Below are positions 11,272 to 50,971 of a stretch of 64,000 nucleotides of DNA, piece after piece. This DNA is from a bacterium (GTDB lineage: Bacteria; UBA10199; 2-02-FULL-50-16; JAJFLM01), in contig CBDCFN010000016.1 in NCBI GenBank assembly GCA_965216315.1, forward strand, positions 1,946,181 through 2,010,180. Direction: 5' to 3'. Positions within the stretch are counted from its first letter, which is position 1, and each line of letters opens with the position of its first letter. The notes beneath the pieces were generated by a model. The model ran no database searches. It had not been told where the DNA came from and worked only from the letters and a program-made list of their open reading frames with translations. Made by a program: the position numbers and the translations under genes.

Positions 11272-13973
11272 ATAAGGCGCGAAAAGAATTCGGCGACTCT
11301 GAAGGCCGTCAACTGTAGGGTCGTGGAGGCCCCGCGTCCCAGCAAACCGGACCACCAAGACCGCTTTTCATCGGTTTCACCCAGGCCAAAAGCCCGCGCG
11401 CCTTCTCGGCTCGCGGTTGCCAAGCCTTCAGTCGCCATACTGATGGCAAGGGCACTGACCAAAAAGGTTCCGAATTCCGGTGAACCTACGGCATAAAAGG
11501 CGCCGCCTAAGAGACCTGTTGTTGCCACGGGAATTCCCACCTTGGCCATCGCTCTCAGGGCGGACGTCCCTGAAGAGGCATTCTCCGTCGCCACTATATC
11601 GCTATCTCCCTCGGCAGATTGATCGGTCCCGCTTTCATCTTGCGTTTGACTTGCGGCTGTTGCCGGTAACGCTTTCTTCTGTTGAGAATTTGAAGCAACG
11701 AGACCTCCAATATCTAAGCCCCAGCGCAACCCTTGAAAAGCGAACAAGGCCGTACCCAATAAAAGACCCACCATCGGATACGTTGCGATCTCCGGCGCTT
11801 CCATGCCCGCATAGTGAGCTCCAATCATTAACGGCAAGACACGCTGGACCCACACGCGCCGCATGAACGGGGAAGACCCATCACGAACCAAACCGGCCGA
11901 CAAAAACATCGAAGCAATGGCTGCTGAGGTCCCCATCGCAATCGATCCCGAATTACCGATAAGCTCAAGGACATTCAGAGGCTTGTCCGCGAGTGCGGTG
12001 ACGACGGCATCAGCGGCCACCGCCCCTCCATAATAGGACAAACCTGTTGGAACGCCATGGCCGGCTATCGCTCGTCCCCAGTCGGACAGATAAGGAGCCC
12101 AACCTTCTCGATAGGTATCGGTGACAACGGTTTCGCGATCCCCCTGCCGTGACATCCGTATCGTAACAGTCCCTTTGGCGCCCCCTAATAGAAAACCGAT
12201 AACACCACTGCGCTCACTGACATTAACCCCGTTGTACGTCGTAAGGACCTTATTCTCAAAATCCCGCTTCGAACAATTCGTCGTATAAACAATACCCGGC
12301 TCTTCGCCGCGAACCGCTAATTTGACAAGCGGGTGGTCGGAGGGAGAGTCCGTATACACCCCGGCAATTCGGTATTCAACACCGAGCTCCTTTAAAGGCT
12401 CGAAAAGTCTTTCTTCTAATAAGTCTATTTTTGATTCATCATGGTTCCAATGAAACTCTCCGGTCAGTTCTTTGTTACCTTCTTCCGTTTCACGGACTCC
12501 AAACCAGGTCCCCTGAACATTTTCTGCCGGCACCCCATATTTTGCCAGTACCCCGGCAACAAGTTTTTCGGGAGAGGCGGATGAAATAATTACCAGGCGA
12601 CCCGCGGCGATATGCTTGCGAAGCTCCTCCATCACAAAGGCACTATGCCCCATGTCGCCATAATACTTGATGAAGCGCTCAAAGCTGTCTTCGAATTTGT
12701 AGGGATCTCCTATCTCCAGCGCCTTGGCAATAATACGCTGCGTTGAATCCTTGTCGGCTTCCCCCTTTACTTTTTCTATTACGCCATTAATCAATCCCGG
12801 GATAACGACAGCGAGAGTCTTAATCAGAGAAACCCCCACGGAATGACGTGGATGAGGCACCACATCGAGGAGCAACCATTCCGCCCACAATTGGCCGTGC
12901 CTCACGACCAGGCCGCGACGTCGTCGCAAGGTACCGTCGTAATCAAATATAACCATTTCAACCGGCTCGTCCCGATAAGCCTCCGGATTGGAGCGTATCT
13001 TGGACAGGGTCAGGGCTTCGATAGATCCTTCACGATGAGCGGCTCCCGCTGTTAAACGTCTCGCTTCACTCGCGGCCCGTGCGATCGCGTTTTTCGAATG
13101 CTTCTCCGATGCGGTAATCTGGCGGATCTTTAGAATCGTCGGCGCCTCGCGTGCCAATAAATCAAGTTGGGTTGGATTCAGGGTCGTTACCTGCTCCACC
13201 GCACCCACCGCCTTGCTCTCACTGTGGACACCCAAAAGCTCTTGCGGCGTTTCTTCTAATAAAGCTTGATGTTCCTCCGTGAAACGGGCGTCCCCGCGCA
13301 GACTTCGCAATGCTTCAGCCACGGGTGATGGAAAATCATCGAGAACTTCATCGGAGAGAACTATTTTGAGTGCATTTCGAAGGTGCCGTAGTTCCTTAAC
13401 ATCGAGGTCCAAACCGGCCTTTTCGAAGGCTGCAAGCACTCTTGCCTCGTCGGATAGCGCCTCGCTGCCTGATCCGGCCGCCATTCTTGCTTCGGCTGAT
13501 TCCCTAAGCTGCGCCGTCACCTCTTCGAGACGTTCCACCCCTTTTAGAACTGATTGGGGAGAGGTAGTGGACCCCGAAGAAGCCGGAACAAATTCCTTCA
13601 GAACTTCGATACGCTTGTCTTCGTTGAGCTCTTGAAGGAGCTGCGGTGAAGGGAGGCTATCAACTGAGCCTGTAAAGACGCGCGCAGCAGATTCCGCAGC
13701 GGACGACAATTCAAGACGGGTCAGGCTGGGCTCGTCTTCTACGATCGGACTCATGATCGTGCGCAAGGATCCTATCGCCTGCTGCGGCGGGATATCCAAA
13801 CCTAGATTTGAAAGAATATTCACCGACTGCATTTGTAAGGCATTCGTGCTCGCAAGCGCCGGTGCCAATGAAGTGTTTAATGCGGCTGTACCAAAAAAAG
13901 TCATATGTCTCCCATCAGCAAAAAAGGCGGTCACATCAGCGCCGCCTCTTATCCGCCTTATCGCGGGGCCCAC
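11268..13973 (-). CDS. Large orphan protein: helical N-terminal region, HAD-superfamily (HAD-IB/SerB-like) phosphatase core, Gly/Ala-rich polytopic C-terminus
   Basis: HAD motif I FDYDGT, motif II IISSAS, motif IV YTDSPSDHP. C-terminal hydrophobic segments. The true start is uncertain (an internal Met at MTFFGTAAL is possible). Confidence 0.6.
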   Translation of the reverse strand: MGPAIRRIRGGADVTAFFADGRHMTFFGTAALNTSLAPALASTNALQMQSVNILSNLGLDIPPQQAIGSLRTIMSPIVEDEPSLTRLELSSAAESAARVFTGSVDSLPSPQLLQELNEDKRIEVLKEFVPASSGSTTSPQSVLKGVERLEEVTAQLRESAEARMAAGSGSEALSDEARVLAAFEKAGLDLDVKELRHLRNALKIVLSDEVLDDFPSPVAEALRSLRGDARFTEEHQALLEETPQELLGVHSESKAVGAVEQVTTLNPTQLDLLAREAPTILKIRQITASEKHSKNAIARAASEARRLTAGAAHREGSIEALTLSKIRSNPEAYRDEPVEMVIFDYDGTLRRRRGLVVRHGQLWAEWLLLDVVPHPRHSVGVSLIKTLAVVIPGLINGVIEKVKGEADKDSTQRIIAKALEIGDPYKFEDSFERFIKYYGDMGHSAFVMEELRKHIAAGRLVIISSASPEKLVAGVLAKYGVPAENVQGTWFGVRETEEGNKELTGEFHWNHDESKIDLLEERLFEPLKELGVEYRIAGVYTDSPSDHPLVKLAVRGEEPGIVYTTNCSKRDFENKVLTTYNGVNVSERSGVIGFLLGGAKGTVTIRMSRQGDRETVVTDTYREGWAPYLSDWGRAIAGHGVPTGLSYYGGAVAADAVVTALADKPLNVLELIGNSGSIAMGTSAAIASMFLSAGLVRDGSSPFMRRVWVQRVLPLMIGAHYAGMEAPEIATYPMVGLLLGTALFAFQGLRWGLDIGGLVASNSQQKKALPATAASQTQDESGTDQSAEGDSDIVATENASSGTSALRAMAKVGIPVATTGLLGGAFYAVGSPEFGTFLVSALAISMATEGLATASREGARAFGLGETDEKRSWWSGLLGRGASTTLQLTAFRVAEFFSRLI

Positions 13974-34174: not shown

Positions 34175-34481
34175 ACCCTCCTATCGGAGGACATACATAA
34201 TAGTTTCATTGTTAACGTCCAGCGACGCATTTTTATGTTTAGATTATTAGACACTTCATGACGCAATAGTATAACGCCTTGATTCAACGATTCAATAATT
34301 GAATCATGCCTCAAATAATTGCTCAGGCAATATACACATCTCCCCCTGAATTCGATCCCTCAGCCGTGGCGTCTAATATTCGGAAGCTGGCAGTTACCCA
34401 GGCCGTGTCGGAGACCATAGGCGTCGAGACCTCTTGCACCTTTTGATTAGACGTCTTAGACTAAAGCCAGTTCTTTGAATT

Positions 34482-34572
34482 GGGGGCGATTTGGGTTCGA
34501 CGGAATCGCCAGAAATGACGATAGCAGGTCGAGGTTGACGTCATAGGGGCTTGCGTCGCCCCCTCCGGAAGC
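34482..34572 (+). pseudogene. Partial, decayed duplicate of the ssrA 5' end (56 nt, 53/56 identical), followed by a T-arm-like hairpin
   Basis: 34482-34537, gggggcgatttgggttcgacggaatcgccagaaatgacgatagcaggtcgaggttg, aligns with 34785-34840. It is followed by GGGGC-ttgcgtc-GCCCC (34546-34562). There is no tag frame and no matching acceptor 3' strand. Confidence 0.6.
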
Positions 34573-34784: not shown

Positions 34785-35141
34785 GGGGGCGATCCGGGTT
34801 CGACGGAATCGCCAGAAGTGACGATAGCAGGTCGAGGTTGTCCGAACCTTGTCTAAAACGGACACAGGCTATAAACGCCGATCATGATGCGCCTTTGGCG
34901 CTTGCTGCTTAATTAAGCGGCCGTCTCTTAGGTTCTTGTCTGCGGGATTTAATGAGACGCCATTTGCAGACTGGCTCAGAGGACATTGTCTTCGAAAATC
35001 TGGGTGAGAAACTCCGAAGGCTAGCGGCCGAACCCCTGTCGATGGGGAAACTCGGTGGCGAATCACTAATCATCGACTAAGCCTGTAGCGATCGTCATGG
35101 AAGCCTTCCGGACGGGGGTTCGATTCCCCCCGCCTCCACCA
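34785..35141 (+). ncRNA. ssrA: tmRNA (transfer-messenger RNA)
   Basis: The 5' GGGGGCG pairs with the 3' CGCCUCC, including the G3-U wobble. T-arm GGGGG-UUCGAUU-CCCCC, 3' ACCA, 5' GGGUUCGACGG D-loop analogue, internal tag frame ending ALAA-UAA. 357 nt. Confidence 0.92.
34868..34912 (+). other. tmRNA tag reading frame (predicted tag ...ADHDAPLALAA; resume codon uncertain)
   Basis: GCT ATA AAC GCC GAT CAT GAT GCG CCT TTG GCG CTT GCT GCT TAA. The canonical hydrophobic ALAA end is followed by a second stop (TAATTAA). Confidence 0.6.
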
Positions 35142-36582
35142 ATTGATAAGTGGTCGACGTTTTGCGAGCAGGGACCACGGCAAATGGTAGGAAAAGCGCA
35201 GGGTTTTGGCCGAAACGCGAAAGTTCGAGCCGATCTTTTTTAAGAATTCCTTTTGGGAGGAGTAATCGTCGCCACTCGCCAGCGGACCCGCTTGGTGAGC
35301 CGCCTGGAGGAATTCGAGGCAGGGTTCGAGCCAACCCATTGCCCCGGTCTCAAGGGCCGTCAGCTTTTCCTCTAAACGCACCTTCTGTTTCAATAATGAT
35401 TCCTTCTTGGCTTGATACTCGACGCGATCGATGATGCCGTCGAGATGGGCGTCCAAGAGACGATCAAGCTTGCCCTGAATGGCCGGCATCTCCCGGTCGA
35501 ATTGTTCCTTAAAGCGTGCAAGGGGTTGGCGAGAATCCTGCTGCTCCTTGGCCCACCACGCGATCATCTGTTGATAGGCGTCAGCCGGCAGAGCGACCTT
35601 TGCGATCGCGGTGCTGATTTGTTTGGCTAAGTCTTCCTCTCGGACAAAGGGCTCGGTACACGGGCCTTTCTTCTTGGTGCAGCGATAATAGTGATATTTC
35701 TTTTTCTGTCGCTCTGCCGTGATGGCGCCGTCACAATTGGCGCAACTCGCCAGGCCAAGAAAGGGAAATAAGTGCTTACGATGTTTGTGAGGCACGCCGC
35801 TCTTGGTCAGCAGACCTTGCACCTTATCGAACAAGTCTTTCGTAATAATGGGTTCGTGGGAGCCCTGATGCCACTCGCCGGAGAACTCGAATAAGCCGTA
35901 ATAGAAAGACTTGGTGAGGATGCGATAAAGGGCGGCGTGCACAAGTGGCTTATTTTTGCGGCTCAGCAAACCCCACTCGGGCGCCATGCGCCGTAGATCC
36001 TCCACCGTATAGCGCCCCGTCGCGTAGGTCTCGAAGAGTTTCTTGATCAGGGGCGCTCGCTCGGGATCGATGACAACCTTTCGGGTCTTTTGGTCATTGT
36101 CGTAGCCCAAGGGTGCGACCCCCGGCCATTCCCCACGCCTTAACTTTTGGCGAATCCCGCGGCCGAATATTCTCCGAAAGGTTGTCCACGTAATACTTGG
36201 ACTGCCCAAAGGCGATATTGAGCATAAATTTGCCTTGTGGCGTGTTTTCGAACCAAAAAGTCGGGAACTTAAGCGCCTTAATATGCTCAGTATCTAAAAA
36301 GTAAATAATCCGGCCGCCATCGACGGAATTGCGCGCGAGTCGATCCGGGTGCCAGGCGATAATCCCTTGGGCCTCACCGCGTTCAATGCGCTCCATCATG
36401 TCATTGAAAATCGGGCGGCCGGGGACCTTGGCCGTCTTGGATTCGGTAAAAATTTCCTTAATTGTTAAACGTTCTTTTTCAGCGAAGAGTTTTAGTTCCG
36501 CGATTTGTGATTCAATTGATAAGACCTGTCGCTCTTCGCTGTCGCTGGATTTACGGGCATAGAGAAAATACTGGGAAGACAT
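35070..36582 (-). pseudogene. Large serine recombinase (integrase) disrupted by a single-nucleotide frameshift
   Basis: N-terminal resolvase domain in ORF 36094-36648 (YARKSSDSEERQ..., HPDRLARN). Recombinase domain, zinc ribbon (CANCDGA...YYRCTKKKGPC) and coiled coil in ORF 35070-36209. The two frames join as ...SENIRRGIRQKLRRGEWPG if one C/G is removed from cccgcggccg (36156-36165). Confidence 0.85.
35136..35211 (+). repeat. Left copy of a perfect 76-bp inverted repeat (includes the last 6 nt of ssrA, CCACCA, and the recombinase 3' end)
   Basis: The manual reverse complement of 36740-36815 equals 35136-35211 exactly. Confidence 0.9.
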
Positions 36583-36739
36583 GGTCGACGTGCTATCGCC
36601 TTTGGGCACGCGTGGCAAATTGGAAATGGCGCCTCCCCGCGAAGGCAAGTGCGATCGGCGCCCGGCGCCGTCAGGTGCCGGCCAGGCGTCGCAGGGACTT
36701 TAAATTTCCCGGAAACGAATGGGGACTTTCGCCAGTGCA

Positions 36740-36815
36740 GGCCAAAACCCTGCGCTTTTCCTACCATTTGCCGTGGTCCCTGCTCGCAAAACGTCGACCA
36801 CTTATCAATTGGTGG
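36740..36815 (-). repeat. Right (inverted) copy of the 76-bp repeat, fused to the ACCA end of tRNA-like module X_A
   Basis: See the left copy. The junction on the minus strand reads ...tccacaggcaccACCA|attgataagtgg... Confidence 0.9.
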
Positions 36816-36967
36816 TGCCTGTGGACCAAAATTCGAACTTGGTTTCAAGAAAATGCGTGACCGCGAGGCCACTTGCTGCAAAAGCCGCGCCGAGCGGTCA
36901 CTAAATGACTATTCCACAGGCACCTTCCCGCCACGCGCTCGTCACGGCTTGTGCAGCCCCGTGTGCC
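36810..36967 (-). repeat. Inverted repeat IR2-A, containing tRNA/tmRNA-like module X_A (12-bp closing stem, T-arm-like hairpin, ACCA)
   Basis: GGTGCCTGTGGA (36814-36825) is complementary to TCCACAGGCACC (36913-36924). The minus strand has CCAAG-TTCGAAT-TTTGG immediately 5' of TCCACAGGCACC-ACCA. About 158 bp match 42477-42634 in inverted orientation, with 8 mismatches by manual alignment. Confidence 0.8.
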
Positions 36968-37264
36968 TCTCGTGCCGCCGCTTGGCCCAGCGCCGAGCCC
37001 CTGGCTACACAAGGCCTGGGCATCCGCCAGCCCCCGCACATAAAGCTGCCCAGGCCGGGGACGCAGAGGGCTGGGCGGGAGGGTGTTAGCTAGTAATGGA
37101 CAATTTTTCGCCACCCGGAAGCGAGGCGCTGAAAAAGTATATAGAAATGATGGAGAATTTGTTGATTAAATAGCAGGATATCATGCCATATGTAGCAATA
37201 GCATGAAGATGTACATCAGACTTACTAAGTATTTGACTATGGCCAACCAAAATACGGGGTTGCT

Positions 37265-37993
37265 ATGACGGTTATGAGCATTTTAGCGGGTATAATCGCC
37301 CTCTTAATTCTAGTCGTATTGAGCAACATTGCCAGTGCGGTACGAGGAAACAGACAGGCCATGGAATCAGCTTGCTCAGATATCAACGATAAAATTGGTG
37401 AGCTTAATAATATCTTATACGAAATAAAAACCGCATCAGAAGAACTACTAGATGTGATCAAGACGGTAAGTGAAACTATGTATAATATGGAAGAAAAGAC
37501 TCATGAACCGATCGTTGATATATTTGGCCCTAATAACTTCCATACAATGTCTAATGATGAAAGGGAAAGCGTCAGCAGTGAGCTAGAAAAGAAAATTTCT
37601 GAGAACAAGACTTCGCAAGACGAATTAGAAGATTGGATCAAAAGCTGGATCATATTTTTTTCACATACGTCATATATTTACGAGATTTTATCTAAAAAGG
37701 ATCTTTTGAACAATGTAAGTCCCGAAACAAAGGAATTGCTTCAAGAGCGTCATGAACAAGCTCAAATGTTTGTTAAAGTAGTTGGTGAACTGAAGAATGG
37801 CAGCGATTTAAATAAGGTAGAACAGTTTCTGGCTAATATCAAAGACCAGAAAGCTAAAAAACTGGTAGTTCGATCGGCACTATACGAAATTTATGGGAAA
37901 AAGGTTCTTCTGAATATTAAGGACATGAAGGATTTAAAGATCTTTTCTGAAGCAACAAATATACCCATTAAATTCATTTTCAACTATCTTTAA
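37265..37993 (+). CDS. Single-pass membrane protein with a long coiled-coil/helical domain (242 aa), unknown function
   Basis: N-terminal TM segment MSILAGIIALLILVVLSNIASAV, followed by E/K-rich helical sequence. AT-rich codon usage. Convergent with the NTPase gene. Confidence 0.65.
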   Translation: MTVMSILAGIIALLILVVLSNIASAVRGNRQAMESACSDINDKIGELNNILYEIKTASEELLDVIKTVSETMYNMEEKTHEPIVDIFGPNNFHTMSNDERESVSSELEKKISENKTSQDELEDWIKSWIIFFSHTSYIYEILSKKDLLNNVSPETKELLQERHEQAQMFVKVVGELKNGSDLNKVEQFLANIKDQKAKKLVVRSALYEIYGKKVLLNIKDMKDLKIFSEATNIPIKFIFNYL

Positions 37994-38058
37994 CATCTGA
38001 CGATGCACTGATATGCGCATAATAAATATACGGTGCATTGTAGTAGATACTGTGCGCT

Positions 38059-41000
38059 TTAGTTGTATTTCTTGAATTTGCACTGCTTGGCACCAATAAG
38101 CTTTGACCTACTGTTGAGCATAAATGCTCCGCTGATATTCAATCTTCCCAATGCACCACCACCGAGATAGCCACTGCCAAACAAGTGCTTTTCGCCGAGA
38201 AGAGTCCAAATAATTGAATAACCATTTTTCTTAAGATAGTTGTGTAATACAGACTTATTAATAAGAATTGACCGAGGCATAGAATCACTAAAAACATTCG
38301 GGTCGAAAGCTATTAGTTTTTTACCGGCACTGTAGAAGCGGCCATCAGTATAATGTTGTCTTATTCGTAATTTATCTATTAACCATTTCGCGGGTAGCTT
38401 GACTCGGATCGATTCGCTTGTTGAACAATCAATCGATGAACCACTACTAAGATATGCGTCATCCGTTACTAATATCTTAGCAGGCATTAATTTGTCACTT
38501 GGAGCGGTCGTCCAACCTTCATGGTGATAATATGGAATGTAATAGTATAAGAATGGATGCGCCCAAGGATACTCACCCAGGAAAACTCTATAAAACTCAT
38601 GAGATTCAGGCATCCACCTACCCATGAAATCTTGCTTCTTTGCCCATAAATAAAATTTCTTCGCATCCCTCTTCTTAACAATATAGCTCTTTATCATATA
38701 CCAAATTGTTCTTGTGGGTGTCTGATATTTATCTTTCTCTGGGGCGATCTCATTTTGCCACTGAATATGACTTTCGAGCGCAAGCCAACTAACGTGATTA
38801 TCATCAGATGTTTCAATAAGGCTAAGGGGATCTGGCAAATCATTTTTGCTCTTTATCCATGTCGCATCAGATGCTCTTTTCTTCCAAGATTTGTGAATAG
38901 TGGTGTGTTGGTATAGCCCTAGATTAGGAACACCTTCAGGCTTAGAGTTTGGTGGATCTTTTAATATGCAAGATGGGTCAATATCCCTAACACTCAACTG
39001 CCAGGGTCCTTGATAAGGGCCATAGCGATCGGGCCACCGTTCTATTTTAAACTCGAAATTATCTCCAATCCGTGCCAATAGCTCATGAAAAGCAATCCAC
39101 TGATATTTTTTTCCTAATCTTTCAGCTTTCTGCTCTGACTGACTTACTCGATAATAATTGACGCGTCTGTCGAAATCACTGTGTAGTTCGTTTTTCAATC
39201 CAAACTGCATAACTCGATGAACTAACCATCTCTGAGCTAATGCCGCATCAAATTCATCAAGTGAATCACTTATATTTCCATGATCATCAATATACGGCTT
39301 AAATTCTCTTTCAAAAAATGATCTTTTTGGCTGCTGCAAAGATTCAATGAATTTTCTCCAAGCAGCTTTTCTCTCTTTATAGTATTGTTTTAGTTTTTCC
39401 TTAGTGTCACTATCATCGTTACCATAGACAATGAGTGGAATACTCACAATGCTTGAAGGGCTTGTAATTTGTCTATATAAACGCCTTTGCTGCTTATTTA
39501 ATTTTTTAATAAATTGCTGATATTGTTCCCTCCTGCTCGCACCTCGAGACATAAGAGGTCGGCTTGACCAGCAATTAAGTGTTGAATTAAGCTCATATCG
39601 TCCAAAGTCGCCAAACATGACAGATGACCATACTTGACGTAATGCTCCATCGTCGGCTGTACACCTTAACTTTAGTCTATCTGCAGTCGGAACTCTTTTT
39701 GGCCATTTGCTGTTATACGGAGGCGCTATTTTCTTCTTACTAACACGTAATTTAAGCTTATTCTTTAAGGCGCATTCAATAATTCCCCGTGCATAATCGC
39801 GTAATAGAATTTGTACTGGTGGCTTGTTATCCTCAAAAATACTTTTATATACCCAGCTAGCTAAGGCCTTGAGCGCCTTTTTGTCGCCTTGGGACCGCAA
39901 GGCACAACCATACGCTATAGCGTAAATCCGCTCTGCGACATACATATCATTAACATTCTGAAACCCTCTCAGTAATCTCAGTACAATATTTAAGCGATTC
40001 GTTAAAATTGCAATGAGTGCCTTTGTACTTTTGTCTCTTAAAAATCTATTAGACGTTGTTAGGAACCATGATAATGTAATTGCACATAACTCTGCAGATT
40101 CATCGCTCAAATGGGATTTATCGTACTCGGACCAAGCCCATGTAACAAGTCGATCGACAGCTTCCTTATTGCCATATTCGTCATGCAAATATATTGACCA
40201 CCACGAATCACGATTAGCCATTGAATACTTAAATAGGTGGCCATGAAGATAATACGCATTGAATGGATGTTCTGGTATAGGTGCAACAGACAGAAAAGCA
40301 TTAAGTAGTAAAGTGTGGCCTCTCTCTGATCTAATTATATGGGTATTTATGAGCCTTATTGTATTTTGAAGACTATGCGAGAAGGCAGTAGGCTTTCGCC
40401 ATATAATACTTTCGATAAAAGCTTCCTCAGCAAGCTGTAATTGATAGTGACCCTTTAAGAGATAAGGGGCGACCTCTATAAATTCACTTCCTTTTAAATG
40501 CTCTGGGCACTGTATTGATAATGTTTCAATTATGCCCCGCCCTAGAGGTTGTGAAATAAATTTACCGAGCTTTCTACGTTTTGAAAAAAATCTTTTAGCA
40601 GTATTGATATTCTTATTGCCTTTTCCAAATTCTGATTCATACTCCTTGAAAATGTACCTACCAATTAAATGATCACTAAATTTCTGAAAAGGGAATCTAT
40701 ATTCGAATCCACTGTCGGAATCCCCTCCACTCGTATATTTTGGGACTTTGACTAACAATAACTGCTTTTCCAACGCGCTAATTAAAGCATTGCAATCAAC
40801 CGTGGGGTATGCATTTGCAACTATTCTGATAAGCTCTTTGTCTGTAATTCTATCTGAGCGTCGTGAAACCATATCATGAGCTATTTGCTCAATAATGGTA
40901 TCCCATATGACATAGTCACCTTTTTTATTTCTGCCTTTAGGTAGTGCGAATTGCTTAACAATATTCCTGCTAGCGAATTTAATGAAATTCTCAAAAATAT

Positions 41001-42198
41001 AAGTAGCACCTTCATGGCCTCGAAATACCGGCTTTTGACCAGTTGTTTTCTTTCCACTGGGCTTAGTTCGGCTTTCGTAGGCTTTGCAAAATAATAGCAA
41101 GAATAGGGGGTTGCGGAATTCTGGCGCAAGCAATGGGACTTCTGGAAGAGGCAAATTGAATTCATTGAAAAATTTGTTTACGGCCTCCCACTCACGGAAT
41201 TCAAAGCCATGATGTTCAGCAAAAACAAATTGTTTCATTTGCGTATTACTGAGAGTGTCATGCTCAAAGCCTGTCCTTACACTAATAGCTAATGCAATAC
41301 ATGGATATCTCTTAAGCGTATCAATGAACTTTTTAAGCTTGCGCTTCCAAATTTTCGGATGATGCGTTTCGTTCAGCGCATCTATAACTATGAGGGAGCG
41401 GACACCTGTTTCTCGTCCAGCCTGATTTAGTAATTTAAACAATCCATTAGATGTCAGCACACCTTTCAATCCGATCTGGTGTATTATTTGGTCAGCTAAA
41501 TCAGCGCTATCTGTAAAATACTCTCCAAACGTCACTACTGTTGGAAGATGTTGTTGTCTCTTGATGCGCGTTTCCACCACGTCACATAAAAGATGTGTTT
41601 TTCCAGTGCCCGCTAAACCCGTTAATAATAGAAATGGCTTATTTGATAGTTTGGCAGAAACGCTGAGCGAAAACTCTTCAAAATTCCTAATCTCTTGTTG
41701 AGTTTTATATAGATATTCTATGTCTGCCTTAATTCGGCTCAAGTACGATTCAAGTTCAGTATTTTTCTTAGTTTCTCTTGTTTTCCTATCGATGACCGAT
41801 TTTTCATCTTCTAATAGTCTAACCAGCTTTCGACACAATGGTATTGCCTTTTTGCTGCGAGAACTAATAGACGGCCACGGAATTATCCTCGTATTAAATT
41901 CTTTTATTTTACTGAGCAATGTCAGGAGAGCTGAGACTTCTCTTTTCAAGTTTCTGTAGGCGCTATCTATCTTTTTCTTCTTATGTTTATTAGATATTCG
42001 GTTAAAGGTTCTTGAGAAATCGCCGAAATCCTTTCTAATTGAAGTATAAAATGTTTCTGTTCTTGCTATTCCATCAAATATTTGGGCAATCGGTACTTTA
42101 ATGTTTAATTTAGGCGTATACCGAGGGCCGGCTTTCTTCAGAACTTTCTCTAGGTGAGAATGAAGCCATTTTTTGTCGAGGAAGAGATTCTTAACCAT
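38059..42198 (-). CDS. NACHT/STAND-like P-loop NTPase, ~1380 aa, with an N-terminal Lys-rich coiled-coil region and a >1000-aa unassigned C-terminal region
   Basis: Walker A LLLTGLAGTGKTHLL (about res 195-209; DNA about 41590-41630). Walker B/NACHT-like SLIVIDALNE (about res 273-282). The ORF track starts at TTG 42213; ATG 42198 is more likely. Confidence 0.8.
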   Translation of the reverse strand: MVKNLFLDKKWLHSHLEKVLKKAGPRYTPKLNIKVPIAQIFDGIARTETFYTSIRKDFGDFSRTFNRISNKHKKKKIDSAYRNLKREVSALLTLLSKIKEFNTRIIPWPSISSRSKKAIPLCRKLVRLLEDEKSVIDRKTRETKKNTELESYLSRIKADIEYLYKTQQEIRNFEEFSLSVSAKLSNKPFLLLTGLAGTGKTHLLCDVVETRIKRQQHLPTVVTFGEYFTDSADLADQIIHQIGLKGVLTSNGLFKLLNQAGRETGVRSLIVIDALNETHHPKIWKRKLKKFIDTLKRYPCIALAISVRTGFEHDTLSNTQMKQFVFAEHHGFEFREWEAVNKFFNEFNLPLPEVPLLAPEFRNPLFLLLFCKAYESRTKPSGKKTTGQKPVFRGHEGATYIFENFIKFASRNIVKQFALPKGRNKKGDYVIWDTIIEQIAHDMVSRRSDRITDKELIRIVANAYPTVDCNALISALEKQLLLVKVPKYTSGGDSDSGFEYRFPFQKFSDHLIGRYIFKEYESEFGKGNKNINTAKRFFSKRRKLGKFISQPLGRGIIETLSIQCPEHLKGSEFIEVAPYLLKGHYQLQLAEEAFIESIIWRKPTAFSHSLQNTIRLINTHIIRSERGHTLLLNAFLSVAPIPEHPFNAYYLHGHLFKYSMANRDSWWSIYLHDEYGNKEAVDRLVTWAWSEYDKSHLSDESAELCAITLSWFLTTSNRFLRDKSTKALIAILTNRLNIVLRLLRGFQNVNDMYVAERIYAIAYGCALRSQGDKKALKALASWVYKSIFEDNKPPVQILLRDYARGIIECALKNKLKLRVSKKKIAPPYNSKWPKRVPTADRLKLRCTADDGALRQVWSSVMFGDFGRYELNSTLNCWSSRPLMSRGASRREQYQQFIKKLNKQQRRLYRQITSPSSIVSIPLIVYGNDDSDTKEKLKQYYKERKAAWRKFIESLQQPKRSFFEREFKPYIDDHGNISDSLDEFDAALAQRWLVHRVMQFGLKNELHSDFDRRVNYYRVSQSEQKAERLGKKYQWIAFHELLARIGDNFEFKIERWPDRYGPYQGPWQLSVRDIDPSCILKDPPNSKPEGVPNLGLYQHTTIHKSWKKRASDATWIKSKNDLPDPLSLIETSDDNHVSWLALESHIQWQNEIAPEKDKYQTPTRTIWYMIKSYIVKKRDAKKFYLWAKKQDFMGRWMPESHEFYRVFLGEYPWAHPFLYYYIPYYHHEGWTTAPSDKLMPAKILVTDDAYLSSGSSIDCSTSESIRVKLPAKWLIDKLRIRQHYTDGRFYSAGKKLIAFDPNVFSDSMPRSILINKSVLHNYLKKNGYSIIWTLLGEKHLFGSGYLGGGALGRLNISGAFMLNSRSKLIGAKQCKFKKYN

Positions 42199-42476
42199 AT
42201 TTCGTGAGTGCAAGAGTATATTTTAATCATACCGAACAACAGGGAAAACATTTATCCAATGTAGTGCTTGCCGCGGGCCCGATTCGGGGGTGCGGGGGGA
42301 GAAGCGGGCCCGCGGCCCCGGCTTCAAGTGGCGTCTTTCAATCTATGGCGAGGCCTGGAGTCAAGCGACGGCCCACTGGGACCGTGGGCGGTGCAGGCCG
42401 AATGCCTGAGCGCCCGGCCTGCGTAGCCTTGGCGAAGCAGGCTAGCGAAGGCATGAGGCTTGCTCAGCCAATTTAG

Positions 42477-42634
42477 GGCACGCGGGGCTGCACAAGCCGT
42501 GACGAGCGCGTGGCGGGAAGGTGCCTGTGGACGAGGCATTTAGTGACCGCTCGGCGCGGCTTTTGCAGCAAGTGGCCTCGTGGTCACGAATTTTCTTGAA
42601 ACCAAGTTCGAATTTTGATCCACAGGCACCACAA
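42477..42634 (+). repeat. Inverted repeat IR2-B, containing tRNA/tmRNA-like module X_B
   Basis: GGTGCCTGTGGA at 42520-42531 and TCCACAGGCACC at 42619-42630. T-arm-like CCAAG-TTCGAAT-TTTGA at 42602-42618. The internal stem GTGACCGC/GTGGTCAC has a G-U where copy A has G-C. Confidence 0.8.
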
Positions 42635-43027
42635 AATTTGCGCAGCCAATTTTGTCCCTATATTCCATATACGATATGCGCCATGGCGCAAATTTTCGTA
42701 TATAGAATATCGTATAGGGTATATGGGGACTTATTGCTGACTTTGAATCAACAAAGTAACAATATAATCCTGCGATTGCCTGCTTTCCAATATGGAAGAT
42801 AAACATAAACAATATCTCGAACGTATGTATCCGTTACGGAGCACTAAAAGATAATAATACAAAGATGGGAGATATTGTCCGTATATATCACAAAAATGTT
42901 AGTGAGCCCACAAAAGACAGAAATCGAATAACAGAATAGATATTCAATTAACCTATGATCATGCGGGCCGTATGATATCAGGGATGTGATTCGCAGGCGA
43001 GTTAACCAGCGGACTCACATCTGGGGG

Positions 43028-44567: not shown

Positions 44568-44598
44568 GGACGAGCAAATCCCCCCCCCACCTCCACTA
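44568..44598 (+). repeat. Degenerate direct repeat of the ssrA 3' end (T-arm/acceptor); putative distal att remnant
   Basis: ggacgagcaaatcccccccccacctccacta here compares with ggacgggggttcgattccccccgcctccacca in ssrA 35111-35141. Confidence 0.55.
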
Positions 44599-44604
44599 TT
44601 CAGT

Positions 44605-44693
44605 GTGCGTCCAAGAGGCGATCCAACTTGCCTTGAATGGTCGGCATCTCCCGGTCGAATTATTATTTAATGCGTGCGGCAAGGGATTGGCGC
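44605..44693 (-). pseudogene. ~89-bp remnant of a second serine recombinase gene (homologous to 35448-35533)
   Basis: ...gcgtccaagaggcgatccaacttgccttgaatggtcggcatctcccggtcgaatt... aligns with ...gcgtccaagagacgatcaagcttgccctgaatggccggcatctcccggtcgaatt... The remnant translates as FDREMPTIQGKLDRLLDAH versus FDREMPAIQGKLDRLLDAH. Confidence 0.7.
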
Positions 44694-47600
44694 TTGCGAA
44701 GCGTTCCCAGGACAAGGAGACAGAGAGCCAGTACAGCCCATGGCAGCCCCGCGTTCACTCTTTCCGCAAATGAAGCGCTTGTTAAGCTACAACTGGAGGA
44801 GCCGCCGCCGCCCTCCACTTCTAAACAATCAAAGAAACCGTCGCGGGGAGCACTGACATCCACTACGAGATGCTCGCATCGATCACATGCACCCAATTCA
44901 ACTCTCTGGGGATCATCAGGGCAGTCGTCATTGCAGTCCAGTACGCCGTCACCGTCGCTGTCGACATCGTCGGTCTTATCCGGATCGTCGGGGCACTGGT
45001 CAACTTGCTCCAGACCGGTCTCCAGGCAGTCGGTGATGCCGTTCTGGTTTTCATCCAGGTCCGCTTCGCCGCAACCGCAGTCGCCCTCCTCCGTCTTGTT
45101 CGGATCATCAGGACACTCGTCATTGCAGTCCAGCACGCCGTCTCCGTCGGAGTCGACATCGAAATCCTTTTCCGGGTCCGTGGGACAGAAATCCTCGCTG
45201 CCGTCCGAGGGCATGCAGTCAGTATCACATCCGTCACCATCGACGCCATTGGCGTCGTCGCACTGCTCGACGCCGGACTGCACAAAACCGTCGCCGCAAA
45301 AAGCGGAGGTACAGTCGGGCAGACACTTATTATAGAACTGATTGGCAACGCCGTTGTCGCATTCCTCGCCCGGACCGACGATGCTGTCACCACAGAACGC
45401 CTGGGTACAGTTGTTCGTGCAACTGTTGCTATTGTCGTTGTCACCGTCGTCGCATTCTTCCGAGCCCTCGGGAATGCCGTTCCCGCAGCTGCCACCTTCA
45501 AGCTCGCAGTTTGCACAGATCAGCCCTAAGGCGGCATAATCAACACCGTCTTCAGGATCGCATTCCTCGCCCGCTGCAATCTGCACGATACCGTCGCCGC
45601 ACACGGCCTCGATGCATTCGTCACTGCAGGAGTCGTCGTTGACGCCGTTGCCGTCGTCACATTCTTCCACGCCGTCACCGGTCAACTGGACCACGCCGTC
45701 GCCGCAAATGTTCTCTGAACAATCGTTCTTGCAGCTGTCATGGGGATCGGTATTGCCATCATCGCAGTCTTCACCGGCCTGCGGGACGCCGTCACCACAT
45801 GATGGTTTTTCACACGTGTTGCTGCATTCATCGTCATCGGTGTCGTTACCGTCGTCACATTCCTCGCCGAGCGTGGCCTGTGTAATGCCGTCACCACATT
45901 CCTCGATCACGCATGTACTACTGCAACCATCGAGCGAGTTATTGTTTGCGTCATCACACTCTTCGCCGTCGTCGAGATTGCCATCACCACAGCGTGCCTC
46001 GATTTCGCATGATTCGGAACACCCATCGCCATTGCTGTTGTTCCCGTCGTCGCAGTCCTCGGTACCGAACTGGACGAAGCCATCGCCACATGCGGCATTC
46101 AAACAACTCGTTGTACATCCGTCGTTGGGATTGACATTGCCGTCGTCGCATACCTCCGTGCCTTCGACGACGCCGTTTCCGCAGCGGGGCTCGACAATGC
46201 AGATATCGGAACATCCGTCGCCGCTCGACTGGTTGCCGTCATCACACTCTTCGCCGTCGTTCGGATCTAAAATGCCGTCACCACAACGCTGGTTGATGCA
46301 GCCCGGGCGGCAGCTGGCGTCGGGGTCGGTGCTGTTGCCGGCGCCGTTGTCACAATCCTCGCCGGGATCCGTGTTGCCGTCGCCGCAGAACGGGGCGATC
46401 ACATGGCAGATCGCGTCGCAGTTGCCGGAATTCGGCGGTTCGCATTCTTCGCCCAGGAGCGGCTGGATGGAACCATCACCGCAGGATTCGGCGACACAGG
46501 TATCGGAACACCCGTCGCCACTCGATTGGTTGCCGTCATCACATTCTTCACCGGCAACAGAATCTCGAATGCCGTCACCACAACGGGATAACACGCAACC
46601 CGGTCGGCAATTGGCATCGGGATCGTTGCTATTGGCCGCACCGTCATCGCATTCCTCACCGGGGTCCGGGTTGCCGTCGCCACAGAAAGGGGCAATAAGC
46701 TGGCAGGCCGCGTCACAGTCATCGACCGAGGGGGGTTCGCACTGTTCGCCCAAGAGCGGCTGGATGGAACCATCGCCGCAGGATTCAGCGACACAGGTAT
46801 CGGAACAGCCGTCCCCGCTCGACTGGTTGCCGTCATCACACTCTTCGCCGTCGTTCGGATCTAAAATGCCGTCACCACAACGCTGGTTGACGCAACCCGG
46901 GCGGCAGGTCGCGTCGGGGTCGGTGCTGTTGCCGGCGCCGTCGTCACATTCTTCGCCGGGATCCGTGTTGCCGTCTCCACAGAACGGGGCAATCACATGG
47001 CAGATCGCGTCGCAGTTGCCTGAATTCGGCGGTTCGCATTCTTCGCCCAGGAGCGGCTGGATGGAACCATCACCGCAGGATTCGGCGACACAGGTATCGG
47101 AACACCCGTCGCCACTCGACTGGTTCCCGTCATCACAATCTTCTCCGCTCTGCTGAATGCCATCGCCGCAACGCTCCTCGCGGCAGAGATGACTGCAGCC
47201 GTCATTATCATCCAAGTCGCCGTCGTCGCATTCCTCGCTGGGCTGCTGAATGTTATCGCCACAGGCTTCCAGCTGACAGGTCGCCGAACAGCCGTCGTTG
47301 TCCGACTGGTTGCCGTCGTCGCACTCTTCATCATCGCCGCCACCGATCGTATTATCAGCACCGTCGGGGTCGAGAACACCGTCGCCGCAGCGCTCTTCAC
47401 GACATAAATGATTGCAACCGTCACCGTCGATGAGGTTGTTGTCGTCGCACTCTTCACTGGGTTGCTGGATACCGTCACCACACGCTTCCAGTTTGCAGTT
47501 AGCATCGCAGCCGTCACCATTGGACTGGGCGCCGTCGTCGCATTCCTCGTTATCGTCGAGCGTAGTGATGTCATTATCAATACCGTTTAGATCAAGAACC

Positions 47601-50600
47601 CCATCCCCGCAGCGCTCGGGTTGGCAAAATTCACTACAGCCATCACCGCTGACCGGAAGACAAACGGCACTGTTCGGATCGACACAGCCGCTGACGTCAG
47701 CCGTCGTGCAAGCCACATTGATATCATCGCTGCAGACGCCACCGTCGTCGCACTGCTCGCCGGCAACACCTTGCGTATGACCATCGCCGCAAACGGCGCT
47801 CTTGCAGTCATCTGTGCATAAGTCGTGATTATCGATGTTGCCGTCGTCGCATTCTTCGGCGACGAGTTGTCCCGTCACCGGGTCGACAAAAACATTGGTG
47901 ATGCCATCACCGCATTCCTCGATCTGGCAAGACCGGCCGCAGCCATCTTTATCCTGCGTGATGCAGACCGCGCTGTTCGGATCGGCACAGCTGGTTACAT
48001 TATCAATGGTGCAGGGCACATTGGGATCATCACTACAAACACCGCCGTCGTCGCATTCTTCGCCGGTATCCAGGACACCGTTACCGCAATTCGGCCCGCC
48101 GTTGCCACCATCGCCGCCACATTCCAGTTCGCAGGAATCCGGATGACAATAACAGTTGTCGGGTACATCCGGGTTTCCGTCTGCATCAAATTCGCATTCT
48201 TCCAGTGCCTCGATCTCACCATTGCCACAGACGGGTCCTTGGCAATCGTTGCCGCAGGCATCATTGTCGACATTATTGCCGTCGTCGCATTCCTCGTCGT
48301 CGTCGGTGTTGGGGATGTTGTCAGGTCCATCCGGGTCGGTAACACCGTCCCCGCAGGATTCAATGTTGCAGGCATTGTTGCAACCATCACCATTCCTTTG
48401 AACACAGGGGGTCGGGTCGCCGTTGGCGTCGACCGGGCACTGCGAAACACTCGTACAGGCGCTTCCGCCTACAAGACAGTGTTGGCCGTCGTCGCACTCT
48501 TCGTCCTTGTCGAGGATACCGTTGCCACAGGATTCAAGTATGCAGAATTCGCTGCAGCCCGGGTGCCGGATCGGTTCACAAAAGTTGAACTTGAGGATCG
48601 GATCGCAGTCAAAATCAGAGGTGCACGCGGTGCCGGTTTGGGAACAAGCACCACCCTCATCACAGCTTTCAAAGGGAGGTTCAACGACACCGTTGCCGCA
48701 TCGGGAATCATTCAATTCGATCGCGCCCCGGTCGCAGGCAGCATCCGGTCCGTAGCGGTCCGTGCCAAGTTGGTCGTCGGCGGGACAATCGTTACTGCCC
48801 GTATCGTTGGCAATACTGGACGCAAGCAGCGGGCAATGCGGTTCGCCGGCGATGCTTGATGAGGTGTCGCAGACGTCCAGGCCGGCATCCGTATCGGGCG
48901 ATACCATAATGTCGTTCGTCATCGCCGCAACAATCGCGCCGCTTAAGTCGCCAAGGAGGTTAAAGTCGTTCGAGTTCAGTCCACCGCTGTAATTGGGTCC
49001 ACTCGCTTTGGCGGTGTTCTCTGCCAGGATCGCGTTTCTCATGCTCGTGTTGCTGTTGAGGCTGAAGACACCGCCGCCCTCCTCACTAGCCAGGTTGCGC
49101 GCAATCGTGGAACTGAAGATATTGATATAGGTCTCCGGGATGACAAAAGGATCCGTCGAACCCGGATCCGGAAAGACGATGCGCGCCTGCTGAAGTTCGG
49201 TGCTGCTAACATCCAGGTAAGCATTCGTCTGAAGGCTGTTTCTAATCGTATCATTGGTGACAATCTGGTTTCCATCGGTACGGCTTCCGTCGCCACCGTC
49301 ATTGCGGCCACCATCCCCACCGTCGTCGAAGATTGACTGGCAGATATTGGGATCCCCCAAGATGAAGAAACCGCCGCCCAGTTTGGCCTCGTTTTCAAAG
49401 ACGCTGGTATTGGTAATGCCGACGTCACTGCACAAAAAAGCCAGTCCGCCGCCGAACTCGCCGGCGAGGTTGCTGTGGAAAGCGCTCTGTTCGATCGTGA
49501 CATTACTGACAGCAGCGCCGATCGCCCCGCCCAGTCCCGTGATACTGTTAACCTCCGAAGAGTCCTCAGCGATGACGAGGTTGTCTGTAAATGTAGAATT
49601 GCCGATGTTGAGGTTGCCCGCCGCCATGACGATGGCGCCCCCGATCGAGGACACGTTACCGGCAAATATTGAGTCCGTGATCTCGACTGTCGAAAGAAAC
49701 TCCGTCGCGACGGCACCGCCAATGCCGTCTTCGCGGCCCACTGTCAGCGGATGCGGTGTCGTCAGCGTGCTGTTGCCTTTCAAGGTAGACTGATGGATTT
49801 CTAAGATACCGGGCCCGCCGCCACCGTTGTTGTCGTCACCTTCCTCACCGACGAGGAGTGCACCGCCGTTATAACATTCATCGCAGATCTCAGGTTGGCA
49901 TTGGTCGGTACAACCATCTCCGTTCTGCGGGGCGCAGATTTCTTGACGATTGGCACTGCAAGGATTCTTGGCATCGCAGAAGGCACCGAGTTCCCCCGTC
50001 GTGACATCCAGGCAGCGGCCACCGTCGTCGCATAACTCTGCCGGCGCATCGACGATACCATCCCCGCAGGATTCCAGTTGACAGAAGCTGTCACAGCCGT
50101 CCCCGGATTGCGGGATGCAATCATTGGCGGCGCCATCGACGACCGGACAAGGATTATTGGCGTCGCAGACGGACCCGTCCGCGGAACAAAGACCGCCGTC
50201 ATCACACTGCTCGCCATTAACGGGTTCTTTTACGCCGTTACCGCAGGAGGCATTGTCTCCGCTGTTCAAGCGCCGACAATTGAAATCACAAGGAGGGCCG
50301 CTCGTATCGCCGGGATCGCATTGCTCACCGTTTTCGACGATGCCATTGCCGCAGCTTTCCAATTGGCAGTCGGCACTACAGCCATCGCCATCGACTCGCT
50401 CTCCGTCGTCGCATTGTTCACCTACATCCACCTGGACGATGCCATCACCACAGAACAGCGGATCGCAACCGGGATTGAATTTATTGATACTAAGGTTGTT
50501 GAATGACGCCAGGCCGCGAACATGGGCGAGCCGGAAGAAAATGTCTCCATCGGGATCCGAGCCGAGACCGACAAGGTCCGCAACGCCACCGCCGTCGATA

Positions 50601-50971
50601 ATGACCGGAGCCTCAATCACAGGCAGTGCGTTGGGGCCGTTGCAGGCATTCAAATTGAAATTATCGACCTGCGTAAATTGGTAGATGCCGGCCGTGAGGA
50701 CAATAGTGTCTGTCCCGTTGCCGGGAGTACAGCCGTCGACTTGTTCTTCGCGCCTCGAGGCTTCGAGCGCCTCGCCGAAAGAACATTTTCCGTCCTGGTC
50801 ACCGCCGATCGTGGGAGGACCTGACGGCAATTCGCCGCAGCGAAGTGGCGCAGCCGCCCCGCTATTACATTGGACCGTCGTATCGACGATAATCGTCGCC
50901 CCGTAGGCGCTGCCCGCAATACTTAAAGTGATTAAAAAGAAAAGAGTCTTACCCAGCGTCTTTGCGTTCAA
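44663..50971 (-). CDS. Giant secreted protein: signal peptide, CSLREA-like motif with a parallel-beta-helix/PMP-like repeat region, dozens of Myxococcus-type Cys-rich repeats, TSP3-like Ca-binding repeats, C-terminal TM anchor
   Basis: Signal peptide [24 protein letters not shown] (TTG start with a GAGGGGG RBS). [11 protein letters not shown] motif. GGAI/GGGL...N repeats. Many C-GDG[17 protein letters not shown] units. [18 protein letters not shown] repeats. C-terminus [19 protein letters not shown]. Confidence 0.9.
46206..47097 (-). repeat. Three tandem 297-bp (99-codon) coding repeats inside the Cys-rich gene
   Basis: The tatcggaaca(t/c/g)ccgtc(g/c)cc(g/a)ctcga(c/t)tgg motif recurs at about 46206, 46503, 46800 and 47097. 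Units 1 and 3 are nearly identical (protein ...[42 protein letters not shown]...). Confidence 0.85.

Follow-up and report, generated by a model that had tools for sequence, protein, structure and literature searches.

Serine integrases are the main tools for large-DNA insertion, and the usual view of their attachment sites is that these are short stretches of arbitrary sequence within protein-coding genes. In Myxococcus phage Mx8, which uses a tyrosine recombinase (Mx8 Int), the gene intP spans its own attP, and integration alters the C-terminal coding end of the integrase; we know of no duplicated inverted copy of the integrase 3' end in Mx8. Hin/Gin-type invertible segments place a serine recombinase gene between inverted repeats, and they are characterized by small invertases with a C-terminal HTH, ~26-bp sites, an enhancer, and alternative expression states. 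Islander-type islands and tycheposons, which use tyrosine integrases, integrate at the 3' ends of tDNAs, restore the gene end with element sequence, accrete in tandem at a single tDNA, and carry defense or accessory cargo; the tycheposon preprint recorded a large serine recombinase in 27 of 937 elements at tRNA genes. In serine integrases of the A118/LI, Bxb1, and phiC31 type, the hybrid junctions have no more than a short core in common. The zinc-ribbon-domain motif of the LI/A118 integrase lies at half-site positions 16-24 in attP and 11-19 in attB, a shift of 5 bp (PMC3783163).

Inverted repeats in the window (the whole 64,000-nt stretch of DNA that was analyzed) are, in our assessment, attachment-site DNA of an integrative island and not RNA genes (probability about 0.85). 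At the level of sequence comparison, the junction relationships, the 5-bp offset, and the conservation of the architecture in other loci are established. The large serine recombinase (LSR) gene of the island (35070..36582, minus strand; Pfam, translation, and tblastn) encodes Resolvase, Recombinase, and Zn_ribbon_recom domains (PF00239, PF07508, PF13408), as do enzymes of the A118/LI, Bxb1, and phiC31 type, with which the locus also shares hybrid junctions having only a short core in common and the shifted motif. The domain matches fall in both halves of a gene that is broken by a single frameshift near 36106-36161, where tblastn with P0001/P0004 splits it into two frames; the LSR is 58-77% identical to intact homologues. 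The island in the window is decaying, as judged from this frameshift and from the divergence of both repeat pairs to 95%. Unlike integrases of the A118/LI, Bxb1, and phiC31 type, this family targets tRNA and tmRNA genes at their T-loop/acceptor end, its integrase ORF spans the crossover (in the window it runs across into tmRNA antisense), its P and P' arms are very dissimilar, and it keeps an inverted second attP beyond the integrase gene, giving attL, an internal attP, and attR.

The first repeat pair consists of X_A (copy A; 36809..36967, minus strand) and X_B (copy B; 42477..42635, plus strand). A repeat search found these to be inverted, 159 nt long, and 95% complementary with 8 mismatches, at a spacing of 5509 nt, which bears out the original prediction of ~158-bp inverted repeats bracketing an NTPase cargo; the weaker similarity said to extend past the arms is marginal, falling to ~55% with a 29-nt indel beyond 36967/42477. 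A second pair, which the original prediction missed, flanks the LSR gene and abuts both copy A and the tmRNA 3' end. Its arms D (35127..35211, plus strand) and D' (36740..36824, minus strand) are 85 nt long and 95% identical as an inverted repeat. From the repeat search, alignment, and six-frame translation, D would comprise the core and the P' arm, and it is antisense to the final ~25 LSR codons; D' looks like a remnant duplicate of the LSR 3' coding end, and LSR residues 458-485 match 36741-36815 by tblastn.

These pairs meet at three junctions. The candidate integration target is the tmRNA gene (ssrA; 34785..35141, plus strand), identified by ARAGORN and Rfam (RF00023, 170 bits; the sole RNA match of Rfam over the whole window) and by comparison of junctions. 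Its final 24 nt (35118-35141), from the T-loop GTTCGATTC through CCA, correspond to the B arm, and we infer that the crossover dinucleotide is the CC at 35136-35137, tRNA-equivalent positions 71-72. The tmRNA end reads ...CCTCC followed by ACCAATTGATAAG, which is D. X_A and X_B are the same up to ...GGCACC, after which X_A continues into ACCAATTGATAAG (D') and X_B into ACAAAATTTGCG (B'); at X_A/D' the complement of 36814-36815 gives the core CC, which in X_B lies at 42629-42630. The tmRNA|D junction thus has the structure predicted for attL (B+P'), and X_A|D' that of an internal, unrecombined attP (P+P'). X_B|B' is the predicted attR (P+B') and island end, because the sequence from 42631 is B' (ACAAAATTTGCG...). 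What attL and attR share with attP is just a short core. B' (42631..42730, plus strand) is presumed from the repeat search, the junctions, and analogy with L025 to be the original ssrA-downstream sequence, and within it a palindrome with 24-nt arms (42654-42730) encloses a terminator-like hairpin (42677-42690). The B' of L025 has a hairpin and a T-run, as expected from its position downstream of a tRNA gene.

The unit is not the 5.5-kb cargo alone, as had been proposed, and instead is a 7.5-kb island (35138-42630) in which the recombinase gene also lies and which extends as far as the tmRNA gene. We propose that this ~7.5-kb element would have been inserted into the tmRNA 3' end by its own LSR, which would have exchanged strands at tRNA-equivalent positions 71-72. 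In this model the LSR recognizes GTTCGAA, the T-loop sequence of tRNA and tmRNA genes, and attP would therefore carry the same motif, 5 bp further from the crossover. At attL the P' arm of the element would restore the discriminator A and CCA, while a second attP would stay unrecombined, inverted, and immediately upstream of the LSR gene. Since two inverted attP copies flank the LSR, the integrated island would show two inverted-repeat pairs, D/D' enclosing the LSR and X_A/X_B enclosing the cargo. The earlier reading of the repeats as recombination sites for cassette mobilization was essentially right, with the 3' 30-35 nt of the module being the attP-type arm and copy B the attR; the suggestion of a tRNA-like target or decoy holds only as DNA mimicry of the tRNA T-loop/acceptor region. 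Of the tycheposon traits, an integrase, a tmRNA target, and cargo are present, and replication genes are absent. In contrast to Islander-type islands and tycheposons, the recombinase here is a serine recombinase, only ~5 nt of the gene are replaced, and the far end has no direct tDNA-fragment repeat or partial target copy, having instead a T-loop mimic with a 5-bp offset.

The mimic, GTTCGAATT, lies at 36838-36830 in the P arm of X_A (36816-36843) and at 42606-42614 in the P arm of X_B, and its distance to the core in X_A exceeds that in the tmRNA by 5 bp. Counted from the gene-type end, (R)TTCGRA starts at 29 nt in X and at 24 nt in the target at 10 of 10 loci that have a tRNA/tmRNA-derived arm, with distances of 28 and 23 in L010 that keep the 5-bp offset. 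The motif thus occupies half-site positions 16-24 in X (attP-type) and 11-19 in the target, and the appearance of a "12-bp acceptor" (7+5) arises because it sits 5 bp further out in X. An attP/attB offset of 5 bp that had been proposed from one crystal structure holds in every case examined. The GTTCGAA sequence is probably read by the zinc-ribbon domain of the LSR. Where the LSR ORF reads through X, the motif encodes the conserved peptide RT[YF]F[QE], and therefore part of its conservation could be protein-coding and not due to DNA binding. Junction comparisons across loci gave no convincing common motif with a 5-bp shift between the P' and B' arms.

Homologous LSRs (50-69% identity) from 11 other distinct loci indicated that the arrangement is a family trait. 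Their LSR 3' ends lie within tRNA-Gln (L010), tRNA-His (L013), tmRNA (L011/L012), tRNA-Pro (L020/L021, L023), and tRNA-Ser (L022, L025, and L017, in which the LSR segment is reversed), or inside a tRNA-Leu 3' fragment (L024); in L014 and L026, which have no tRNA, a P-type arm lies on either side of the LSR. The D/D' inverted repeat encloses the LSR in every locus (85-185 nt, 90-100%), and the discriminator base supplied by the P' arm fits the target, being A for tmRNA and tRNA-Pro, C for tRNA-His, and G for tRNA-Gln and tRNA-Ser. In L023, L024, and L025 a second repeat pair abuts D' and brackets cargo (370 nt at 100%; 359 nt at 99%), and the three-junction logic of the window is repeated.

It could be argued that such inverted repeats are the terminal repeats of a MITE-like element or composite transposon that has nothing to do with the recombinase, or that a chimeric inverted duplication arose in assembly, as they enclose AT-rich cargo and assemblers can be confused by repeats. 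No transposase was found in the unit, and the two-pair architecture with arms abutting at the core recurs in independent assemblies of different organisms (L023, L024, L025); the copies differ at 8 positions and therefore are not a collapsed or duplicated read artefact. We find this explanation scarcely credible.

The LSR has 8000 relatives in the database at E<=0.001, and the best 120 of these are 43-69% identical (the window's own fragment aside); the phage and plasmid collections held no close relatives (<30% identity). Among these best 120 homologues, 53 have W-x4-DSN-type tails, the antisense of a tRNA T-loop, and 14 have x7-RT[YF]F tails, the antisense of an X-type arm, with spacing fixed within each class. 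A C-terminal change on integration is shared with Mx8 intP; in the LSR family the junction determines whether the tail is tRNA-antisense or X-antisense.

The two kinds of tail in database proteins are also what would be seen with a DNA-inversion switch, in which the 5.5-kb cargo, the 1.6-kb recombinase segment, or both change orientation through the action of the recombinase or through homologous recombination. Both repeat pairs are inverted with every arm stopping at the recombinase crossover core, arm identity is 96-100% in most relatives that are intact, in keeping with frequent exchange, and many assemblies break inside X. The orientation of the LSR segment relative to the tRNA and X differs among relatives (L017 versus the others), but both orientations are explained equally well by integration via either attP copy, and the window recombinase is a pseudogene. 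Furthermore, by the published directionality rules (in part PMC3783163), serine integrases pair attP with attB or attL with attR, and not attP with attL or attR. We therefore judge an inversion switch unlikely. The locus also stands outside the Hin/Gin type, as it has an LSR, arms of 85-185 nt, and outer flanks that are attachment-site arms. A flip would change expression or the C-terminal tail of the recombinase.

A more speculative extension of the attachment-site model, possible but doubtful, is that an LSR gene between two inverted functional attP sites is the ground state of the family and has a purpose, either a tail-switching flip or a modular cassette platform. If there is a flip, the LSR tail would alternate between an X-encoded form (...RT[YF]F[QE]...) and a tRNA-antisense form, which may toggle the enzyme between active and inactive states. 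As a platform, cargo cassettes and the LSR module would be joined at site centers, in an integron-like system whose driving serine recombinase reads the universal tRNA T-loop. Cargo cassettes in L023 are palindrome-ended.

The original prediction had also raised the possibility of a novel small RNA, with X encoding a tRNA-like structured RNA that is transcribed outward and processed or recognized like the acceptor/T-arm domain of tRNA or tmRNA. The fold of 121 nt is stable in both copies (-51.5 and -49.1 kcal/mol, z ~ -4.4), but the MFE structure of the 166-nt whole repeat unit is a different long hairpin, conserved in the family (36878-36954 in X_A, 42490-42566 in X_B), which leaves both the 12-bp stem and the T-arm-like hairpin unformed and thereby excludes the tRNA-like fold. 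The 12-bp closing stem GGTGCCTGTGGA/TCCACAGGCACC, entirely Watson-Crick, was confirmed in both copies (2 matches versus 0 in 100 shuffles), and a closing stem of other sequence can form in L013 (8/9 pairs), but none is present in L010, L014, L017, L020, L011, L022, L023, L024, or L025. The hairpin CCAAG-TTCGAAT-TTTGG is likewise present, as a TTTGA variant in copy B, but T-stem pairing in 12 X arms is 5, 4, 2, 3, 1, 1, 4, 5, 1, 2, 3, and 2 of 5 (mean ~2.8), compared to 5/5 in every intact target tRNA, and the G53-C61 equivalent in X is G-U. An internal 8-bp stem does retain pairing through one difference between the copies (G-C to G-U). Copy A ends in ACCA, as described, but this end is accounted for by the P' arm of the element, and copy B ends in ACAA.

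ARAGORN, a check suggested with the original prediction, matched nothing at the repeats and found only the tmRNA gene at 34785-35141; Rfam likewise gave no match there with the threshold relaxed to E<=10. No additional copies of the module turned up when genome, metagenome, and viral collections were scanned for exact patterns, and promoter-like sites were no more frequent than in shuffled sequence, with none within the repeats. The likeness to the tRNA-like domain of tmRNA and to YrlA (bacterial Y-RNA-like) is superficial and confined to geometry, in that a TTCGAA-loop hairpin sits beside the 3' strand of a terminal helix, whereas here there is no covariance-model match and the pairing is not conserved in homologous modules. 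A novel tRNA-like RNA at the repeats is very unlikely. The attachment-site model does not account for one feature: 87 nt upstream of the P arm lies its perfect 12-bp complement, and this much Watson-Crick pairing exceeds what chance would give. The conserved hairpin that makes up the inner part of X is terminator-like and would shield the site from transcription coming out of the cargo; a small terminator-like hairpin lies at 36872-36857 in X_A.

The AT-rich cargo between X_A and X_B includes a gene for an anti-phage Avs2-like STAND NTPase (38059..42195, minus strand), supported by PADLOC (PDLC02164, E=0, 1287 bits), AAA_22/NACHT-type Pfam matches, and translation. The PADLOC match pairs protein residues 10-1382 with profile positions 169-1498, which means that the protein lacks the usual N-terminal part; the effector part of the profile, its first ~168 positions, has no counterpart. 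The other cargo ORF (37265..37993, plus strand) encodes 242 aa with a hydrophobic N-terminus and had no Pfam or PADLOC match. Related elements next to tDNAs carry Hachiman-like, restriction-modification, toxin-antitoxin, and HEPN genes.

Of interest is the conserved double-attP architecture in a tRNA-targeting LSR clade with defense cargo, here Avs2; together with an integrase tail that changes with recombination state, it is testable. The clade is large and mostly uncultivated, with repeated retargeting among tRNA and tmRNA genes while a near-universal T-loop anchor is kept, and its enzymes are candidate tools for inserting DNA at conserved tRNA sites across many bacteria. Defense islands at tRNA genes may be built partly by serine and not tyrosine recombinases, which would contradict a working assumption of island-finding software.

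An older, decayed junction was found at 44569..44656 (no strand assigned) by tblastn, blastn, sequence inspection, and translation. A diverged tmRNA 3' fragment (44569-44597, plus strand) there abuts an LSR remnant, the antisense of an internal fragment of another LSR gene (44603-44656, aa ~361-379).

The 159-nt arms of modules X_A (36809-36967) and X_B (42477-42635) were recovered by a repeat search as a real inverted repeat, as the original prediction had it, with 95% complementarity and a spacing of 5509 nt, and a sequence check found all of the predicted stems in the modules. Overlooked in that earlier account was a second inverted repeat, D (35127-35211) and D' (36740-36824), with 85-nt arms at 95% that begin within the last nucleotides of the tmRNA gene (ssrA, 34785-35141) on one side and of module A on the other. 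The gene for a large serine recombinase (LSR) with Resolvase, Recombinase and zinc-ribbon domains sits between D and D'. D is common to two junctions, following the tmRNA (...CCTCCACCA then ATTGATAAGTGG...) and, on the minus strand, module A (...GGCACCACCA then ATTGATAAGTGG...), and module B on the plus strand is the same as module A as far as ...GGCACC, after which it continues into ACAAAATTTGCG.... Compared at the sequence level, the three junctions show the classical attachment-site pattern, in which target-side arms B and B' are exchanged with element-side arms P and P': the tmRNA-D junction would be attL (B+P'), the junction of X_B with the sequence from 42631 (B') would be attR (P+B'), and X_A-D' would be an intact attP (P+P'). 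Because the junctions fit this pattern, the island is placed at 35138-42630, and the predicted attB is ssrA followed directly by ...CCTCCACAAAATTTGCGCAGCC. Just beyond the island end, B' holds a terminator-like hairpin (42677-42690) inside a palindrome (42654-42730; 24-nt arms, 88%); this is probably the original terminator region of ssrA, and such a hairpin is as expected if B' originally lay downstream of that gene. Of the interpretations offered earlier for the repeats, recombination sites stand, while structured RNAs and a cassette separate from the recombinase do not.

Relatives were sought with the repaired LSR sequence; 8000 were returned, the best 120 of which were 43-69% identical, the window's own fragment aside, and genomic contexts were compared for eleven. 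The LSR reading frame terminates within an opposite-strand tRNA, tRNA fragment or tmRNA 3' end in nine of these eleven; the targets include tRNA-Gln (L010), tRNA-His (L013), tmRNA (L011/L012), tRNA-Pro (L020/L021 and L023), tRNA-Ser (L022, L025) and a displaced tRNA-Leu 3' fragment (L024). Locus L017 has the LSR segment in the opposite orientation: its tRNA-Ser adjoins D', on the upstream side of the LSR, and an X-like arm is found at the 3' end of the LSR. The LSR is flanked by a D/D' repeat at every locus (85-185 nt, mostly 96-100%). In L023, L024 and L025 a second repeat pair adjoins D' and encloses 3.5-6 kb of cargo, precisely the layout of the window, with arms of 370 nt at 100% in L024 and 359 nt at 99% in L025. 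The three junctions of these loci also follow the window's attachment logic, and B' of L025 is a hairpin followed by a T-run. Since the second repeat pair and the junction logic are shared, the organisation of the window is a family trait and not an accident; the window island itself is a decayed member, as its LSR is frameshifted and each repeat pair has drifted to 95%. In annotated phage and plasmid collections, all LSR relatives were below 30% identity and none was close, and a scan of viral-contig proteins gave two truncated N-terminal matches only. Assemblies of the homologues often break 95-145 nt outside D/D', inside X (at the starts of L011, L012, L021 and L022 and the end of L017), which would fit a repeated or variable X in those genomes.

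When all junctions were anchored at the shared core, the T-loop motif GTTCRAnnC of the target genes began 24 nt from the CCA-type end, and the X motif (R)TTCGRA began 29 nt from the same end. This 29 versus 24 spacing held in 10 of 10 loci with a tRNA- or tmRNA-derived arm, L010, which is without an encoded CCA, having 28 versus 23. Taking the first two nucleotides that gene and X share (tRNA positions 71-72) as the crossover puts the motif at half-site positions 11-19 for the tRNA and 16-24 for X. These are the positions of the motif for the zinc-ribbon domain of the LI/A118 integrase in attB (11-19) and attP (16-24), where the 5-bp shift has been proposed as the feature that distinguishes attP from attB (Rutherford et al., PMC3783163). 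On these spacings, the "12-nt acceptor strand" of the module is the 7-nt acceptor strand plus the 5-bp offset. Each element also brings, in its P' arm, whichever discriminator base its target needs (A, C or G), and in most cases CCA. The idea that X is a piece of the target gene, displaced in the style of tyrosine integrases, was rejected, X and target having in common only a 6-12-nt core and the T-loop motif, with spacing off by 5 bp. A minimal LSR-only element with palindromic ends, lying between two convergent tRNA-like ends, was also rejected as the primary model because both outer flanks should then have attB-type spacing, whereas that of X is always of attP type.

It is very improbable that the X modules are a small RNA, even though the 121-nt module folds at about -50 kcal/mol (z about -4.4): neither the closing stem nor T-stem pairing is conserved, and a different hairpin is conserved and favoured in the fold. 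The 12-bp closing stem is without counterpart in L010, L014, L017, L020, L011, L022, L023, L024 and L025, and L013 has a weaker one of different sequence. T-stem pairing averages about 2.8 of 5 in twelve X arms versus 5 of 5 in all intact targets. Instead, X has a conserved long hairpin, TGCAAAAGCCGTGACGG...CCGGCGCGGCTTTTGCA, whose inner stems vary; it lies 61-231 nt from the core and resembles a bidirectional terminator. Folding the window's entire repeat unit gave this hairpin and not the tRNA-like fold. ARAGORN called the tmRNA (Rfam, 170 bits) as the sole RNA gene in the window and did not call the modules as tRNA-like, and Rfam gave no match at the modules even at E<=10, permissive thresholds yielding noise alone (miRNA models on the B' palindrome and hya/DUF1874 at E about 10). 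The attachment-site model does not account for the window's perfect 12-bp complement, which may be an accessory feature specific to the lineage. An exact-pattern scan for the closing-stem pair had 0 matches in viral contigs and 7 in genome contigs, all unrelated palindromes or coding sequence, and the P-arm pattern AGTTCGAAYTTTGNNCCACAGG had 0 matches in viral contigs and 2 chance matches in metagenome contigs, both in an unrelated intergenic region. Long perfect palindromes starting GGGTGTGCCTGTGGAT in two Gemmataceae genomes (L002:3649-3755 and L003:5444-5557) came up only through the 11-mer they have in common with the closing stem and probably belong to an unrelated family of repeats. A small protein in the X regions, such as a directionality factor, was also considered; six-frame pieces matched only where the DNA matched, in all frames, and so the X regions do not encode protein by themselves.

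The LSR gene in the window is broken by one frameshift and its reading frame continues into the tmRNA antisense, D being the antisense of the C-terminal codons. Among the 120 homologues, 53 have W-x4-DSN-type tails, the antisense translation of ...GGTTCGAATCC...CCA (the tRNA T-loop), and 14 have x7-RT[YF]F tails that are X-arm antisense, with fixed spacing inside each class, so natural examples of both junction types are common. Judged from these reading frames, the C-terminal tail would depend on the recombination state, or the junction faced. The conserved X motif TTGAAAAtAAGTTCGAAC translates as VRTYFQ and, as the reading frame crosses the site with a conserved tail, part of its conservation could be at the protein level. 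The Arg codon is CGA in all six X arms translated (the window, L010, L017, L020, L024 and L026), a uniformity that points to a DNA-level constraint.

Two loci (L014:9700-11530 and L026:6400-8400) have the LSR between non-identical arms with attP-type spacing on both sides and no tRNA on either. Both arms of L026 contain the core GAGCCA, shared with a tRNA-Asn 7 kb away that keeps its own terminator. From this arrangement, the un-integrated ground state may be an LSR flanked by two inverted attP sites, and integration via either attP copy would yield both orientations of the LSR segment that are seen. Alternatively, the LSR segment might flip by homologous or site-specific recombination, swapping the tail of the enzyme. 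Beyond the double attP, the cargo of L023 (4824-9799) consists of two adjacent cassettes, one with HicAB and one ORF and the other with three ORFs. Perfect inverted repeats bound both: those of the first span about 120 nt, made up of adjoining blocks of 35 nt (97%) and 87 nt (100%), and those of the second 148 nt (100%). Three ~46-nt hairpin units (GGCGCGGC-loop-GCCGCGCC) separate the cassettes, and this nested-palindrome structure hints at modular assembly at palindrome centres.

A literature search of incomplete coverage found no description of a double-attP architecture or T-loop mimicry; the LSR survey of Durrant et al. never mentions tRNA in its main text, and the tycheposon preprint reports LSRs on 27 of 937 elements at tRNA genes with no more detail. 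The cargo of the window encodes an Avs2-like STAND NTPase (38059-42195; PADLOC E=0) that matches the profile from position 169 onward only, and thus has no recognisable N-terminal effector. Its divergent neighbour, a 242-aa ORF with a hydrophobic N-terminus (37265-37993), had no family match in Pfam or PADLOC and no record in an exact look-up; it may act as an effector in its own right or as a partner.

At 44569-44656 a diverged tmRNA 3' fragment (AATCCCCCCCCACCTCCAC) is followed directly by an antisense internal fragment of another LSR (DREMPTIQGKLDRLLDA), which reads as an older, decayed attL, so that ssrA would have been used by at least two such islands. A 2102-aa ORF (44663-50971) begins right behind this junction. 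The 5' end of the tmRNA gene is also present as a 62-nt copy (34476-34537, 92% identical) some 300 nt upstream of intact ssrA, left by a further rearrangement or insertion there. Upstream of its intact tRNA-Ser, L017 (9341-9550) carries a second copy with the T-loop interrupted by about 105 nt; this copy departs from the gene near the crossover position and is followed by a D-like remnant. The L024 island (11444-12231) lies on a displaced tRNA-Leu 3' fragment (21/24 nt) behind a PIN/ParD pair, and in L025 (2529-2861) an older tRNA-Ser 3' fragment is joined to a D-like remnant just past B'; these two fragments indicate tandem accretion at the same tDNA.
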